A stretch of 64,000 nucleotides of DNA from Octopus vulgaris. Lineage: Eukaryota. Location: NCBI GenBank assembly GCA_951406725.2, contig OX597839.1, positions 6,510,001 through 6,574,000 of the forward strand, given 5' to 3'. Under the pieces are notes generated by a model. That model was not told the DNA's origin. It did not search any database and was given only the letters and a program-made list of their open reading frames with translations. Both the position numbers and the translations under genes were made by a program. Each line of letters starts with the position of its first letter. Within the stretch, counting starts at the first letter, position 1. Positions 16,287 through 60,275 of this stretch are shown here, piece after piece.

Positions 16287-16451
16287 GTTTACTAATTTAA
16301 ATAAATGAACAATTAAATAAATGAATGAAAACATGAATGCGATTTTCATTATGAGTAAGCAAAACTAGATGAAGTCTACATTTTTTAAAGATCTGAAGTT
16401 TCAAGTGGTTGGAAGATGTTTAACGAAATCCGTTTTCGTTATGTTTCAGGT

Positions 16452-16993
16452 GTTGATGGTGGGACTTGGAGGCACAAGCGTTGATGGTGGGACTTGGAGG
16501 CACAAGCGTTGATAGTGGGACTTGGAGGCACAAGCGTTGATGGTGGGACTTGGAGGCACAAGCGTTGATGGTGGGATTTGGAGGCACAAGCGTTGATGGT
16601 GGGAATTGGAGGCACAAGCGTTGATGGTGGGACTTGGAGGCACAAGCGTTGATGGTGGGACTTGGAGGCACAAGCGTTGATGGTGGGACTTGGAGGCACA
16701 AGCGTTGATGGTGGGACTTGGAGGCACAAGCATTGATGGTGGGACTTGGAGGCACAAGCGTTGATGGTGGGACTTGGAGGCACAAGCGTTGATGGTGGGA
16801 CTTGGAGGCACAAGCGTTGATGGTGGGACTTGGAGGCACAAGCGTTGATAGTGGGACTTGGAGGCACAAGCGTTGATGGTGGGACTTGGAGGCACAAGCG
16901 TTGATGGTGGGACTTGGAGGCACAAACGTTGATGGTGGGACTTGGAGGCACAAGCGTTGATGGTGGGACTTGGAGGCACAAGCGTTGATGGTG
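16452..16993. repeat. 28-bp minisatellite, about 19 near-identical copies
   Basis: Unit GTTGATGGTGGGACTTGGAGGCACAAGC with only scattered single substitutions and no unique spacers. Confidence 0.97.
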
Positions 16994-17049
16994 TCGGTAA
17001 TAATAATGGTGTTGGTGGTGGTAATGGTGGAGGTGGTTGTGAAAAAGGG

Positions 17050-17246
17050 ATCATAGTCCTTTACCAGGCCTTGGGCTCACAAGGCTGGTCTCCTGGTTTC
17101 TGTGGCTTATATGTTCCCTACTCTGGACCGGAGACGCCTCTCCGTCGCAACGTTACTCATTTTGTCAGCTGAGGGCCTGGAGCATCGTTCGTCCCAGGAA
17201 TCGAAACTACAATCTTACGATCATGAATGCAACATGCTCAACCTTA
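17050..17246 (-). mobile_element. Old tRNA-type SINE with a V/Meta-like central segment; homolog at 18445-18586
   Basis: B-box-like GTTTCGATTCC on the minus strand. The CTGGACGGGACGCCAGTCCA-like segment is shared by both copies. Confidence 0.55.
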
Positions 17247-20130: not shown

Positions 20131-20340
20131 TTGTGTGTCTGTGTTTGTCCTCCATCATCGCTTGACAACCGATGCTGGTGTGTTTACGTCTCCGTAACTT
20201 AGTGGTTCGGCAAAAGAAGAACGATAGAATAAGTACTAGGCCTACAAAGAATAATTCCCGGGGTCGATGTGCTCGACTAAAGGCGGTGCTCCAGCATGGC
20301 CGCAGTCAAATGACTGAAACAAGTAAAAGAGTAAAAGAGT
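19914..20340 (+). mobile_element. SINE family B, full-length
   Basis: Runs from the AGGCGTAGGAGTGGTTGTGTGG head to the GACTGAAACAAGTAAAAGAGTAAAAGAGT tail. Confidence 0.9.
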
Positions 20341-20686
20341 ATATATATATAAATTAAATTAGAGATAAAATCTCTATTAGGCAAATCAAACAGCGAAAAA
20401 CATAAACCAAAACATAAAAATAAAAATAAAAAATATAATATACAAAATATATAAAATATAAAATCAAAAAATTAAAATTATTTAAATTTAAAATTAAAAT
20501 TATTAATTTATATTTATAAATTTTAATTTTTTTATATATATTTTTTATATCAAAAAGTCTTTTTTTATATATATATTTTTTTTTATATCAAAAAGTATTT
20601 TTTTATAAATATTTTTTTTATATCAAAAAGTATTAAAAAGTATAATATGAGATAAAAAGTAAATAATACACACACACACACACATA

Positions 20687-20780
20687 CAGGGTGGCCCAAA
20701 AGTAGGTTTACAGTTATTCAACTATGTCTTTCGCATTTATATATCAACAGTTTAGATCTTACCTTTTTTGTTAATTTAGT
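20687..20780 (+). mobile_element. Tc1/mariner-like terminal fragment
   Basis: TA|CAGGGTGGCCCAAAAGT start resembles mariner TIRs; no partner TIR found. Confidence 0.4.
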
Positions 20781-20783
20781 GAA

Positions 20784-23700
20784 TGAAGTCGAGTTTGACG
20801 AGCTCCCGCCGGTCGTGGAATTAGAAGATTTGAAACCCTTTATGAACATTTAAAAATAAGTAAGTAAAATTTGGACTTCATAAAAAAAAGACGAGGAAAA
20901 TATACTGTTAAAATGTATAAAGAAAAAAGAAAAAAAACGATACTAAAAAAAAAGACGAAGAAAAAGAACAAGCTAAAAAAAGGAAAAAAACTGTAAGATT
21001 GTTTAATTGTAAAAAATGTAATGGCGGTTTCGTCTCGGAGCGGGACCGAGAAAACCGTCTCATATTCCTTATAATTTAATTCATTGTAATTCATTATTTC
21101 ATATGTTTTTTTGTTACCGCATGTTTGTGTATGTCCCCTCTGTATTCAGGCCTTGTGCCTATAATAAAGAGAAAGCTGGTGATTTTCACTAATGGGTGTT
21201 GATTGTGATTTCTTCGATTTGAGTTCAAATTGTTACGTACTGATATTGTAGGTTTGTTGTAGGTTTTCCCGCGCCGGTGAACCAAGATTCTTTGGATTGT
21301 GTAAATTGTTGAATTTCAGTCACTGTCTCGTTTGCACCTGTATAATCCCCGTCTACGGGAGAGTGAAGAAAGGAAGAGAAATGGAGAAACGATACAAATA
21401 AAAGACTAAGAAAAAGAACAAGCTAAAACAAGGAAAAAGAGAAAAAAAACTGTAAGAACGTTTAATTATAAAAAAGAAATCGCGGTTTCGTCTCGGAGCG
21501 GGACCGAGAAAACCGTCTCATATTCATTATAATTTAATTCATTGTAATTCATTTTTTCATGTTTTTTTGTGTTCCCGCATGTTTCTGTATGTCCCCTCTG
21601 TATTCAGGCCTTGTTCCTATAATAAAAAGAAAGCTGGTGATTGTCACTAATGGGTGTTGATTGTGATTTCTTCGATTTGAGTTCAAATTGTTACGTACTG
21701 ATATTGTATGTTTGTTGTAGGTTTCCCCTCGCGGGTGAACCAAGATTCGTTGGATTGTGTAAATTGTTGAATTTCAGTCACTGTCTCGTTTGCACCTGTA
21801 TAATCCCCGTCTACGGGAGGAGTGAAGAAAGATGGAGAATAGACAAAGTTACGCAGCGGCAACGACACAAGGAATAAATACCAACACCCTGGAATTGCAG
21901 GAAATAGAAATTGACACAAGAAAGAGGAAGGAAGGAAGAAAATTTGTAAAAAAGGAGGGAGTCTAAAGCTGACTCCCCCAGAAGAACTGATGAAAAGCAT
22001 AGCGAAGAGGACGGTAGTATACAGAACGTTGTCTACGTCCTCGAACAAGATAGAGTTAGTTCCAACAGAAGAAATAGAGGAATGCCTCGAAAATGTTAAA
22101 AAATTGACCACGTTCTATACACGTGGAAAAAAGTACGGCTCAGTGGAAGTAAGGTTTGGCAACGAAGAAGATGCCATAAACCACTCCACGGACCCGTTAC
22201 GGACAACGAAATGGATACTACTTCCGACGTACTGTGGCAAACGCGTTGCCTAGTGAGAGTTGGAAGAGTACCCCGCGAAATCGAAGAAGGATGGCTGGTA
22301 GCAGTCATAATGCACGATATGAAGAATGGAGTAGAGATCCTCAAGATAACGTGGACCCCCCCAAAGTCCAATTGGTGGAGATATAGCCTCGAAGTGACCA
22401 TGCAGGTATCTTTGGAAGACTTGCATAGTATAACGGAGGAAATAGTACTCCCGGAAGACAGCAGATTTCGAATAACAGTAGAAGTAAGACCACCAACATG
22501 ATTCCTATGTGGCAAAAAGGGGCACAAGAAAGCAAGATGTCTCGAGAAGGAAAACGGAGAGGAGAAGAAAAGTGAAGAAAACAATATCGAAGAGGTAGTA
22601 CCAATGAAAGAGACAGAGAGAGTGGAGGAAACCTTCACAGTAGTAAACACGAGGAAGAGAAAGGAACGGGTGAATTCTCCCCCAGACAGTCAAAAAAGGC
22701 TAAAGGAGATTGTGATGGAAGAAAAGAGAAATAGGTGTGAAGCACCAATAGAAACAGTAGTGAAAGAAGGCACACAAGAAAAAAATACCATTAGAACAGG
22801 GAGAACGGGGGAGCGTTTGTTGAGTTGGTTGTGATGTTTCTGCGCGCCCGAACAGATGAGGACGGGAGCCGAAGCAAGCAGAAGTGAAAAGGAAGAGATA
22901 TAAGTGACATTTGGTCAGGTATTCCAAAAGTAAAGAAGTAGAGAAAACGATTGTAAAATATAAACCGGTAATAAGAGTAAAGCTGCCGCCAGGAAAATAC
23001 CCGGAATACAGTAAAGGAATAGTCATAGATAATGAGAGATTTTTGAAATTGAGAGAGATGTATGGACATTTTATAGACTCGCTGGGGGTTGAAGTCGAGT
23101 TTGACGAGCTCCCACTGGTCGTAGAATTAGAAGATTTGAAACCGTTTATGAACATTTAAAAATAAGTAAAATTTGTACTTCATAAAAAAAAAACGAGGAA
23201 AATAGACTGTTAAAATGTATAAAGAAAAAAGAAGAAAAAAAACGATACAAAAAAAAGGACGAAGAAAAAGAACAAGCTAAAAAAAGGAAAAAGAGAAAAA
23301 AACTGTTAGAACGTTTAATTGTAAAAAAGTAATGGCGGTTTCGTCTCGGAACGGGACCGAGAAAATCGTCTCATATTCATTATAATTTAATTCATTGTAA
23401 TCCATTCTTTCATATGTTTTTTTTTTTTGTTCCCGCATGTTTGTGTATGTCCCCTCTATATGCAGGCCTTGTGCATATGATAAAGAGAAAGTTGGTGATT
23501 CCCACTGGGTGTTGGTTGTGATTTCTTCGATGTGAGTTCGAATCGTTACACACTGATATTGTATGTTTGTTGTAGGTTTCCCCGCACAGGTGAACCAAGA
23601 TTCGTTGGATTGTGTAAATTGTTGAATTTCAGTCACTGTCTCGTTTGCACCTGTATAATCCCCGTCTATAAGGGAGGTGTGAAGAGAGATGGAGAATAGA

Positions 23701-24084
23701 CAAAGTGGAATTAGAAGATATGAAACCCTTTATGAACATTTAAAAATAAGTAAAATTTGTACTTCATATAAAAAACGAGGAAAATAGACTGTTAAAATGT
23801 ATAAAGAAAAAAAAACTAAAAGAAAAAGAGACTAAGAAAAAGAACAAGCTAAAAAAAGCAAAAAAAAAGCAAGAAAAAAGACTGTAAGCACGTTTAATTG
23901 TAAAAAAGTAATCACGGTTTCGTCTCGGAGCGGGACCGAGAAAATCGTCTCATATTCATTATAATTTAATTCATTGTAATCCATTCTTTCATATGTTTTT
24001 TTTTTTGTTACCGCATGTTTGTGTATGTCCTCTCTGTGTTCAGGCCTTGTGCCTATAATAAAGAGAAAAGCTGGTGATTATCAC
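20784..24084 (+). mobile_element. Head-to-tail array of four units of an ORF1-only (gag-like) non-autonomous retroelement
   Basis: Units are 20784-21175 (3' part only), 21190-21633 (internally deleted), 21648-23491 (full) and 23506-24070 (internally deleted). They share 5' and 3' UTR blocks. The junction motif CTGGTGATT(G/T/A)TCAC lies at 21176, 21634, 23492 (degenerate) and 24071. Confidence 0.85.
21832..23159 (+). pseudogene. Disrupted ORF1/gag-like protein with a CCHC zinc knuckle (L1/Tx1-clade-like)
   Basis: Begins MENRQSYAAA, continues through track ORFs 21990-22253, 22211-22501, 22604-22834 and 22911-23159 via frameshifts. *FLCGKKGHKKARC at 22499-22540 is CX2CX4HX4C with the first Cys codon mutated to TGA. 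No RT or EN follows. Confidence 0.75.
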
Positions 24085-24295
24085 ACACTGATGACGGGTT
24101 ACTACCCAGAAATCCAGGTCTGTGTGTATCACGAAAGGCTAGAGATGGGAAAGATATTTCCCGTTGCAAATAATAATCGGGCACAGGCAGTGTGTCATTA
24201 GCCAGCTGGAGGATATGTCTTCCTGGGGCTATAAACAACAGTCGCATCGTGCCCTATGGGTCCGCCACATCTAAATGGCAAATATACTTCACGAT
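24071..24295 (+). mobile_element. HHR-bearing non-coding repeat family E (3' part)
   Basis: Homologous along its length to the reverse complement of 52449-52656; ends AATATACTTCACGAT into (TA)n. Confidence 0.8.
24074..24132 (+). ncRNA. Minimal type I hammerhead ribozyme
   Basis: CACACA-CTGATGA-c-GGGT(tact)ACCC-a-GAAA-tccagg-TC-TGTGTG. Stem I extends with GTGAT/ATCAC. Predicted cleavage is after C24120. The stem II base is non-canonical (C.A). Confidence 0.7.
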
Positions 24296-24305
24296 ATATA
24301 TATAT

Positions 24306-24727
24306 ACTCTTTTACTCTTTACTCTTTTACTTGTTTCAGTCATTTGACTGCGGCCATGCTGGAGCACCGCCTTTAGTCGTGCAAATCGACCCCGGGACTT
24401 ATTCTTTTTGTAAGCCCAGTACTTATTCTATCGGTCTCTTTTTGCCGAACCACGAAGTGACGGGGACACAAACACACCAGCATCGGTTGTCAAGCAATGC
24501 TAGGGGAACAAACACAGACACACAAACAACACACACACATACATATATATATATACATATATACGACAGGCTTCTTTCAGTTTCAGTCTACTAAATCCAC
24601 TCACAATGCTTTGATCTGCCCGTGGCTATAGTAGAAGCCACTTGCTCAAGGTGCCACGCAGTGGGACTGAACCCGGAATCATGTGTTTGGGAAGCAAAGC
24701 TCTTGTCACATAGACATGCCTACGCCT
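24306..24727 (-). mobile_element. SINE family B, full-length
   Basis: Reverse-complement match from head to tail. Confidence 0.9.
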
Positions 24728-52419: not shown

Positions 52420-52448
52420 CATACATACACACATATATATATATATAT

Positions 52449-52798
52449 ATCGTGAAGTATATTTGCCACTTAAATGTGGATGCCACTGTAGCTTGTAGCC
52501 CCAGGAAGACATCATCTCCAGCTGTCTATTGACACAATTTCTGTGCCCTATCAGTTTTGCAAAGGGAAGTAATCTTTCCCATTTTCAACCTGACGTGATA
52601 CACATGGATCCGGGTTTCTGGGTATTCACCCGTCATCAGCATGTGACAATCACCAGTTGTCGACGCAAAATGCCTTCCCAATGCAAATATATATATTCTT
52701 TTTCTCGAAAAAGTGTAAACAAGCAATAATGAATGTCTGAGCGAGGTACGAACAGTAGCTGCCCGACATCGTGAAGTATATTTTCCACTTAAATGTGG
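52449..52798 (-). mobile_element. Repeat family E, one 319-bp unit plus a 31-bp terminal direct repeat, containing an HHR
   Basis: ATCGTGAAGTATATTT(G/T)CCACTTAAATGTGG at 52449 and 52768; homologous to 24071-24295. Confidence 0.8.
52595..52653 (-). ncRNA. Minimal type I hammerhead ribozyme (family E)
   Basis: CACATG-CTGATGA-c-GGGT(gaat)ACCC-a-GAAA-cccgga-TC-CATGTG; stem I covaries with the 24082 copy. Confidence 0.7.
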
Positions 52799-53055
52799 CT
52801 AACCCTTAAGGGTCAATACCCGCCCTGATGCAATACCAGGCACTGGCTCTCGTGGCTTCTGATCTTAACCGATTGGAAGTGTTATCATATACATTGTTTT
52901 CTCTTGGTATGAAAGATGGGCTACAGCAAATATTCTGCTCAATACCACAGCAGACGGAATACTCAGCCACTTTGGTTGCCATATTATAAAGAGATCTGCA
53001 GCCTAATGGAGGGCGACGAGCGCTCAATATAAGTGGCGTTGTTTGCAAATAAACA

Positions 53056-58523: not shown

Positions 58524-58875
58524 TTGTGTGTGTCTGTGTTTGTCCCCCTAGCATTGCTTGACAACCGATGCTGGTGTGTTTATGTCCCCGTTACTTAGCG
58601 GTTCGGCAAAAGAGACCGATAGAATAAGTACTGGGCTTACAAAAGAATAAGTCCCGGGTTCGAGTTGCTCGATTAAAGGCGGTGCCCCAGCATGGCCGCA
58701 GTCAAATGACTGAAACAAGTAAAAGAGTAAAAGAGTAAAGAGTAACTAAACACTTTTAAACTTCGTATACTGATAGAAAGTGTTTATAAAATATCTTTTT
58801 CTCTTGGCTTTATTGAGAAAATTCTATAGTTTGTAAGATATTTGTTGTTCTTATTCTTCAATTTCTCCAATTTCA
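58376..58875 (+). mobile_element. MITE family A 5' part, interrupted by a 5'-truncated SINE B (58412-58744)
   Basis: Left TIR AGGATCTTTTTGGCTTGAACGGCAG, then the SINE, then GTAACTAAACACTTTTAAACTTCG resumes the MITE body. Confidence 0.85.
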
Positions 58876-59040
58876 CTGTCTCATCCTCAAGATGGAGAAA
58901 TGTTGGAGTATATTTCCTGTGCATTTTACACTTGTGCAACGTTATTTATGTTGCTTCCGTTATTAACTGTCTATTTTTTTGTGGAGAATTCTCAAGAGTA
59001 CATACGTGCTCCTCTAATATGTTCCTATCTAGTTTTGCTT

Positions 59041-59568
59041 TGTGTTGTATATGTAGTGTATTTCTGTTGCTTCTCTTTGCAGGAGCATTGTGTTGTGTAT
59101 GTAGTGTATTTCTGTTGCTTGTCTTTGCAGGAGCATTGTGTTGTGTATGTAGTGTATTTCTGTTGCTTGTCTTTGCAGGAGCATTGTGTTGTGTATGTAG
59201 TGTATTTCTGTTGCTTCTCTTTGCAGGAGCATTGTGTTGTGTATGTAGTGTATTTCTGTTGCTTGTCTTTGCAGGAGCATTGTGTTGTGTATGTAGTGTA
59301 TTTGTGTTGCTTGTCTTTGCAGGAGCATTGTGTTGTGTATGTAGTGTATTTCTGTTGCTTCTCTTTGCAGGAGCATTGTGGTGTGTATGTAGTGTATTTC
59401 TTATACTTCTCTTTGCAGGAGCATTGTGGTGTGTATGTAGTGTATTTCTGTTGCTTCTCTTTGCAGGAGCATTGTGTTGTGTATGTAGTGTATTTCTGTT
59501 GCTTCTCTTTGCAGGAGCATTGTTTTGTCTATGTAGTGTATTTCTGTTACTTCTCTTTGCAGGAGCAT
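59041..59568. repeat. 48-bp minisatellite, 11 copies
   Basis: Unit TGTGTTGTGTATGTAGTGTATTTCTGTTGCTT(C/G)TCTTTGCAGGAGCAT; 528 bp equals 11 x 48. Confidence 0.97.
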
Positions 59569-60275
59569 TAGAAACCGACTGAAGTGTGTCGTATTCAGAC
59601 GAACAATAAAACAGCTACAGTCGTGAAGTTTGAAGCGTTCTCATTTACTATCGAATTTGTACATCAGACTAGCATTAATTTGTTCATTATTAACGTTAAT
59701 TTATAGTTTAGTGCCATGCAATTTGTATAGTTTAACGAAACTGTAGATAAAGTGTTCATACAGTCTATACTTTGCGTTTATGCGTTTGATTCACTTAACG
59801 CGTGGTTAGTATTATTCTTATAAAGTCTGATGTTTGTTATATTTATAGCGGTTTATTTTTCTTGTATCATTCTGCGGCTTGGTCTATTAGTTTATCAGAC
59901 AAACCATGTTCATTAACTTTTTGTTTTAATTCTGTAGATTTCTATAGCTAGTGTTTCTTCTATGGAAGAGAATCTAAATATTCTATGCATAGATTTCATC
60001 AGCGACACACTGTGTCTGTGTGCATATTCATGGTCTCCATGTAACGATATGCATTTATTTGTATCTTTAGTGCAAACGGATGTGTTGCATTGTATCTGAT
60101 ATTTTTTATAAGAATGTTTGTTTACATCCTTATGTCTAGAAAGGGAAGTGCATGTATGTATGTATGTATGTATGTATGTATGTATGTATGTATGTATGTA
60201 TGTATGTATGTAGGTACGTATATACACATATACATATATATATGTACATATATATATATATACAAATATATATAT

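Follow-up and report, generated by a model that had tools for sequence, protein, structure and literature searches.

Stacked ORF1-only elements of an L1/Tx1-type radiation at a hammerhead repeat of Octopus vulgaris, and the probable routes of their movement

Riders whose tandem copies are separated by a target duplication, derivatives of long interspersed elements (LINEs) that retain only the first open reading frame (ORF1), and retroelement targeting by promoter position are already known from SINEU-3 and Tx1-Mar, from HAL1 and TRE5-A.2, and from TRE5 elements and Ty3, respectively. SINEU-3 and Tx1-Mar insert in Mariner-N4_AMi, and the Xenopus element Tx1L in Tx1D (PMC4494074). A type I hammerhead ribozyme in a non-coding repeat unit of 170–400 nt is a trait of metazoan retrozymes without long terminal repeats (non-LTR retrozymes; PMC7229834), and retrozymes of this type have been tied to Penelope elements (bioRxiv 10.64898/2026.07.22.740005). 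For octopus repeats, 13 recently active L1-Tx1 families have been described, the accessible part of that account making no mention of ribozymes (PMC13282606). Here we analyze a 64,000-nt stretch of the Octopus vulgaris genome (contig OX597839.1, positions 6,510,001 to 6,574,000; hereafter the window), in which four head-to-tail units of an ORF1-only element stand in front of a predicted hammerhead belonging to a repeat that we term family E. We consider it probable that these units are an ORF1-only element and its derivatives, stacked with the help of borrowed L1/Tx1-type enzymes, and that the resulting composite has been moved by a Penelope-type route.

The original prediction, made from the window alone, had described four units each followed by a 14-nt motif, and this arrangement was borne out. 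The motif matched five times in the window (positions in Table 1), compared to 0.35 matches expected and with none of 100 shuffles reaching five, and a self-comparison of the window showed the shared parts of the units to be 85–91% identical. Using a motif-free 3' untranslated region (UTR) as query (40 scored of 185 candidates, 30 fetched), we found the motif directly after 28 of 30 3' ends, or 24 of 26 when the four ends from the window are set aside, a share above the 20% of flanks taken to mark a target preference (PMC4494074). In these 28 copies the motif was followed by E in 18, by another unit in eight and by a different element in two, and E also stood on the left of 16 of 19 full-length copies (12 called by BLAST and four divergent ones by eye, as were three truncated copies). 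Empty E copies hold the motif uninterrupted, with 34 exact empty sites and six exact filled ones found by patterns of similar, not equal, strictness; the minus-strand match in the window, previously likened to an empty site, proved to lie in an empty E unit. Copies outside E carry duplications of their own and lack the motif, namely a 14-nt one in an unrelated hammerhead host (L114/L169) and a 15-nt one in a non-hammerhead site (L126/L085). Because 28 of 30 3' ends carry the motif while copies off E have their own duplications of 14–15 nt, the motif is a duplicated target, neither the element's own terminus nor a recombinase core. The truncated copy L070 has E on both sides with a rare variant shared by the two sides, L075 carries half the motif only, and target duplication together with 5' truncation, both LINE traits, is present in L114, L126 and L070. 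A relative at 79% DNA identity, L290, lies with its own duplication in another hammerhead family, F; since its longer 5' end takes in the five final motif letters, some of the left motif may belong to the element itself and have been matched to the target through microhomology.

The four units belong to a HAL1-like side branch, with ORF1 only, of an extensive L1/Tx1-type LINE radiation. Full copies, including unit 3, comprise a 5' UTR, ORF1 and a 330-nt 3' UTR with neither ORF2 nor reverse transcriptase (RT) in between, in line with the non-autonomous element that had been proposed, and their 3' end consists of a poly(A) signal and about 6 nt. The ORF1 in the window is disrupted by frameshifts and stops, one of which replaces the first Cys of the zinc knuckle; copy L052 has a natural open stretch of 394 aa with a zf-CCHC (PF00098) match just above the cut-off. 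Compared to ORF1s that precede an ORF2 with apurinic-type endonuclease (APE) and RT, the protein is 30–39% identical over about 140 aa. As a query it gave 12,950 first-look candidates (150 scored), and a protein search confined to near-length sequences gave two matches among 2467 candidates, in two Octopus species; matches in an Atlas search were limited to CCHC clusters lacking a name and to ZCCHC3-like rows at about 0.9. When 40 natural stretches of ORF1 were placed in a tree (four further loci had no stretch long enough), 19 ORF1-only sequences formed one clade, four other ORF1-only stretches fell outside it, and E-resident copies were spread over at least four branches. The median ratio of nonsynonymous to synonymous substitution (dN/dS) in ORF1 was 0.16 (24 unsaturated of 78 pairs). 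Judged by this clade, the spread over branches and the low ratio, the lineage is old and has kept its ORF1 working, and is not recent debris. At least six other ORF1-only copies, at 32–50% identity, occupy the same E site. As separate observations, that site also holds, in a stack, a non-coding element of 490 nt from another family (L092:8614-9101, minus strand), and a common short interspersed element (L132, L177, L196) is probably mobilised by the LINE radiation, because its 3' tail is shared with LINE tails (L189–L200) and with ORF1-only families.

Family E, which yielded 1819 first-look candidates, fits a hammerhead retrozyme of the non-LTR type: across 30 loci its unit of ~385 nt is permuted and non-coding with variable start and end, and copies show partial tandems, inverted 5' parts and TA-microsatellite ends. 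These features fit Penelope-type insertion (PMC8557442), and intact Penelope ORFs are present in the genome. The motif corresponds to the 5' strand of stem I, as had been noted for its last copy, and its three variable letters form the bulge of that stem. The predicted structure was assessed over 18 sequences from the hammerhead families E, F and G, where 87% of cells were paired and 14 of 17 pairs showed two-sided changes; none of 500 shuffles reached this paired fraction and slid controls gave 18–49%, figures that do not amount to a probability, the sequences being related. Stem III loops are mostly palindromic. Single-sequence folding was weak (z −1.8 and −0.9), an Rfam scan of the window returned no hammerhead family at threshold, and a scan of 20 flank loci returned no hammerhead, with U2 in L286 as the only match. 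Elsewhere in the genome, L315, L320 and others carry near-identical intact Penelope-type ORFs of 781 aa with tandem subrepeats downstream, at which a pattern search found no hammerhead, and L169:5640-5715 represents yet another hammerhead family, I, whose stem III is longer and whose stem I contains an inserted hairpin.

An autonomous partner at the same target had been anticipated, and autonomous APE- and RT-encoding LINEs, along with other ORF1-only families and deletion derivatives, indeed occupy the same stretch of E. A zf-RVT search revealed many intact ORF2s of 1130–1148 aa with APE (PF03372), RT (PF00078) and zf-RVT (PF13966) domains; the partner ORF1 carries PF00098. The nearest solved protein to ORF2 is human L1 ORF2p (E 2e-66, compared to 1e-24 for R2), and none of the 120 homologues listed for the partner RT is a named Tx1 reference, so that we assign the class as L1/Tx1-type only. 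L164, one of the six exact filled sites, holds an ORF2 C-terminus with the same junction as the ORF1-only family. Four ORF2-bearing LINEs in E (L285, L287, L279, L284) have duplications matching the variant of each locus, their junctions lying about 9 nt farther upstream in E than those of the ORF1-only family. The family of L267, which has an intact ORF1 and an ORF2 with APE, RT and zf-RVT, was found (at ≥97% identity) in hammerhead family G at 14 of 14 loci, as singles and as tandem arrays and including a truncated copy with both flanks (L269); its duplications show the local variant on both sides in all 11 readable cases. A survey of 60 LINE loci gave 54 with a 3' end (three of these probably mis-called), of which 16 adjoin a hammerhead of family E, F, G or H, against a background of 93 in 20000 windows. 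All 16 ends are in sense orientation and 9–33 nt upstream of the core, with none elsewhere in E, F or G; 11 were called by descriptor alone and the rest by BLAST or by eye, and some may duplicate one event, three lying within 0.5 Mb on C1. Related LINEs also occur in three other hammerhead families and at a U1 fragment, and one 3' UTR family (L219–L235) occurs in E, F, G and non-hammerhead sites of unlike sequence. Apart from these, several otherwise non-specific LINE and ORF1-only 3' ends (L198, L203, L205, L217, L184) enter one shared non-hammerhead repeat, which is either another target or the 5' end of another element.

The original prediction had taken the ribozyme to be the target. Because junction positions differ by family within those 9–33 nt and fall in dissimilar sequences, recognition of the ribozyme sequence itself is improbable. 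A LINE 95% identical to L267 (L286, G000:C15:21147800-21155799) lies behind a 17-nt U1-like 5' fragment, between two convergent U2 small nuclear RNA (snRNA) genes, with a right flank that does not continue U1. Inspection by eye revealed a 7-nt box 57 nt before position +1 of these two U2 genes. In E, F, G, H and I it stands 57–64 nt ahead of the duplication, matching perfectly in E and in one F copy and with one or two mismatches elsewhere, and these hosts also have a TATA-like run near −30. For the ORF1-only family the distance from box to duplication is 66 nt, and it inserts about 8–9 nt behind the predicted start. We give about an even chance to a site set by position near an snRNA-type transcription start, the start being predicted from spacing. 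Because unlike ORF1s share one register in E, the data point to the borrowed ORF2 complex, not ORF1, as what would set the site. ORF1 itself as a targeting factor, in the manner of TRE5, is disfavoured, since ORF1s at only 32–50% identity share that register. Of note, five variant U6 genes, which have octamer and TATA elements, are arranged in tandem at L347–L351 (G000:C1:139.42 Mb).

We next consider repeated insertion and carriage by the host repeat. Comparing flanks and elements at 20 filled loci, the 10 truncated ones among 30 being excluded, we found E host flanks to be more diverged (0.193) than the elements (0.124) and to fall into five clusters, without tracking the elements (residual Mantel r 0.01, p 0.44), which argues for repeated insertion. 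In 23 of 28 5'-truncated copies both E and the duplication are missing on the left, in contrast to the full-length copies, most of which have E there. L104, L182 and L036 contain an inverted 5' segment holding the element's 3' end together with E, and an internal junction is identical in L301 and L305, while the outer duplication of L305 is different. Because deletion leaves these inversions and this junction unexplained, composites and multi-unit stacks must at least sometimes have been copied whole, and what looks like repeat targeting is probably in part carriage of element-plus-E composites. Each copy had been seen as a targeted insertion that rebuilds its target; regeneration of the site and repeated insertion stood, but not every copy is accounted for in this way.

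The alternative that survives best, though we think it unlikely, is plain sequence-specific Tx1 targeting as in the original prediction. Here each ORF2 endonuclease would recognise its own brief target within or beside stem I, all junctions would stem from independent insertions, and left halves would have been lost by deletion afterwards. The strict confinement of L267-type copies to one site, the single register of the ORF1-only family in five host clusters, the target shifts known within one host for Tx1 (PMC4494074) and the fact that 3'-side losses are common as well would all suit it, but the L219–L235 family and the L267 relative behind the U1 fragment use sites of unlike sequence, and the inversions and the two-locus junction need composite copying. 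Clearly less probable is RNA-guided homing, in which hammerhead-cut read-through RNA, ending in about 50 nt of host, would pair with nicked repeat copies, so that any element once landed upstream of a hammerhead keeps returning there. Such homing would match junctions that are all sense and close upstream of an intact core, the exact 5' junctions of full-length copies and the occasional difference between left and right motifs; it does not match a right duplicate with the local variant (11/11 in G and 4/4 autonomous E insertions) or the lack of co-variation between element and host flank, and it leaves the U1 site unexplained. Very improbable, and largely refuted, is the idea that one or a few chance insertions in E were amplified only via the retrozyme route: left halves missing from truncated copies and the inverted composites speak for it, but hosts are more diverged than elements and form several subfamilies, many unrelated families sit at the same site, and mixed stacks occur. 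Finally, split direct repeats of the Ngaro/PAT type with a tyrosine-recombinase core, for which a short inverted repeat with a 3-nt spacer in the motif and the precise ends would speak, are refuted by copies in other targets that have ordinary duplications and no motif. Also against them are a spacer that is the unpaired bulge of stem I, an ORF1 homologous to the ORF1s of APE- and RT-encoding LINEs, and a unit 3 without split repeats.

Several results weigh against the reading of ORF1-only riders with borrowed L1/Tx1-type enzymes and Penelope-type carriage. The majority of LINE ends (38 of 54) lie away from hammerheads. The ORF1-only clade has a support of only 0.75 and is separate from the clade of hammerhead-targeting autonomous ORF1s (support 1.00), and descent therefore does not single out the partner. 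A Penelope sharing a terminal repeat with E, F, G or H was found at none of 30 GIY-YIG loci (30 of 6136 candidates). With regard to the start position, box distances were counted by eye without a chance estimate and with up to two mismatches, neither the U6 genes (20 loci) nor the U1 fragment have a clear box upstream, and E, F and G are possibly homologous and then not independent. A permutation test of left versus right duplications, covering eight loci of the ORF1-only family, two of them mis-registered, was not significant (11.4 vs 10.7 of 16 matches, P 0.11), and no target duplication was found around 12 truncated composites or the window stack. Star-like trees give the Mantel test little power, and seven of 19 full-length 5' ends have lost 3' parts, which makes later deletion a possible source of missing left halves.

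Within the window, the beginnings of all four junctions resemble the local E subtype, consistent with successive insertions at a single site; at motif copy 1 the duplication probably starts 2 nt before 21176. Unit 1 has a poly(A) signal and a brief A-rich stretch at the end of its 3' UTR. To the left of this unit there is neither E sequence nor a duplication, confirming the earlier remark that the upstream half of the target is absent at 20784. The breakpoint of unit 4 recurs identically in L032/L305, about 0.7 Mb away, and unit 4 therefore represents a mobile subfamily. As a whole, the left-truncated stack with its TA-repeat end fits a carriage copy, although a later deletion may also account for it. 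Besides the stack, the window contains an AT-rich imperfect palindrome just upstream (20340-20640) with the end of a high-copy repeat near 20690-20726, and two minisatellite arrays (16420-17076 and 58830-59614) with long open frames in several phases.

Table 1. Features of the stack and of family E in the window (window positions)
Feature	Position	Strand	Description
Unit 1	20784..21175	+	5'-truncated copy: last ORF1 codons and 3' UTR
Target motif copy 1	21176..21189	+	motif match
Unit 2	21190..21633	+	internal-deletion derivative, 5' UTR about 1-192 fused to 3' UTR
Target motif copy 2	21634..21647	+	motif match
Unit 3	21648..23491	+	full-length ORF1-only element, 1.84 kb
ORF1 of unit 3	21832..23159	+	about 440 codons; one CCHC knuckle near 22499-22545
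Target motif copy 3	23492..23505	+	motif match
Unit 4	23506..24070	+	internal-deletion derivative, element positions 4-202 fused to 1474
Motif copy 4 and predicted type I hammerhead	24071..24132	+	covariation, folding
Predicted hammerhead stem I	5' strand 24074-24087, 3' strand 24121-24132	+	core starts 24088
Predicted hammerhead cleavage position	after 24120	+	structure prediction
Remainder of family E downstream half	24133..24306	+	terminates in TA microsatellite
Empty family E unit	52438..52811	-	motif 52656-52643, then hammerhead; about 45-nt terminal redundancy

According to the preferred reading, which combines borrowed L1/Tx1-type enzymes with Penelope-type carriage, the ORF1-only element would insert with a sense-strand target duplication of 14–17 nt, a step visible in outline in the copies described above. 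The duplication would rebuild the site, and further elements could stack because the site is regenerated and stem I left whole. ORF2 would be supplied in trans by an autonomous subclade with the same 3' terminus and register (of the L164, L248 and L256 type), while ORF1 would be retained for use in cis, and what marks the site would be its closeness to the beginning of an snRNA-type transcription unit, not ribozyme sequence. Read-through or circular RNA of E and insert would then be reverse-transcribed from the 3' side of E, as the structure of the composites suggests, and such E-primed copying should leave inverted or truncated 5' ends, the window stack being a copy of this kind or the product of later deletion. 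More tentatively, a promoter-positioned LINE clade might hop between retrozyme families and snRNA genes, with the ORF1-only rider taking up the retrozyme promoter and then becoming Penelope-type cargo, a wider scheme that we regard as possible but doubtful. If it held, an ORF1-only lineage of thousands of copies would be a parasite using two unrelated reverse transcriptases in turn.

These results add hammerhead retrozymes to the hosts of site-preferring LINEs, with an ORF1-only lineage sharing such sites. The intact, near-identical copies of the L267 family, together with several natural target switches, make the long-standing question of site choice by an APE-type LINE testable, the alternatives being sequence reading by the endonuclease, promoter-bound factors and RNA flanks. 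If carriage is real, retrozymes can transport coding cargo of about 2 kb, and targeted insertions are fewer than a tally of 'site-specific' copies in such hosts would suggest. Also of interest for targeted gene insertion tools is a LINE that goes to the promoter start of a plentiful repeat outside genes. Our literature search, covering openly accessible main texts outside Repbase, supplements and most subscription papers, returned nothing on LINEs targeting retrozymes, on an ORF1-only rider of a retrozyme site or on its carriage by the host.

Compared to described systems, the octopus element works like HAL1, a non-autonomous L1 derivative with ORF1 only (PMC5753468), but is not a member of HAL1: its homologues were found in two Octopus species and its tail is short, as opposed to a mammalian L1 origin and long poly(A). 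Whereas HAL1 is mammalian and, in the accessible text, not described as site-specific (PMC5753468), the octopus lineage stacks at fixed sites, has a CCHC-type ORF1 and is old and diverse. Like TRE5-A.1 and TRE5-A.2 of Dictyostelium, the octopus elements are L1-type and perhaps positioned at small-RNA promoters, TRE5-A.2 being likewise an ORF1-only derivative mobilised in trans, and as in yeast Ty3 insertion would occur at a start site (PMC3159450, PMC5911963). TRE5 elements insert about 50 nt upstream of tRNA genes in opposite orientation, their ORF1 binding TFIIIB (PMC3159450, PMC5911963), whereas octopus insertions are in sense orientation at or just behind the predicted start. As regards the host, E resembles non-LTR retrozymes and the pseudo-long terminal repeats (pLTRs) of Penelope elements in its ~385-nt non-coding unit, type I hammerhead, partial tandems, inverted 5' parts and microsatellite ends. 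Newt satellite 2 likewise carries a hammerhead. This repeat is transcribed from an internal snRNA-type promoter (cited in PMC2220036), whereas the E promoter is predicted from spacing only. The accessible retrozyme accounts report neither a LINE insertion nor kilobase cargo (PMC7229834, PMC8557442, bioRxiv 10.64898/2026.07.22.740005). The closest parallel is SINEU-3 with Tx1-Mar, where a rider and a Tx1-type partner favour the same position in a different mobile element and tandem copies sandwich a duplication (PMC4494074). In contrast to that pair, the octopus rider encodes ORF1 and uses several host families at shifting registers, and its host is a hammerhead retro-repeat that is apparently able to move the rider.

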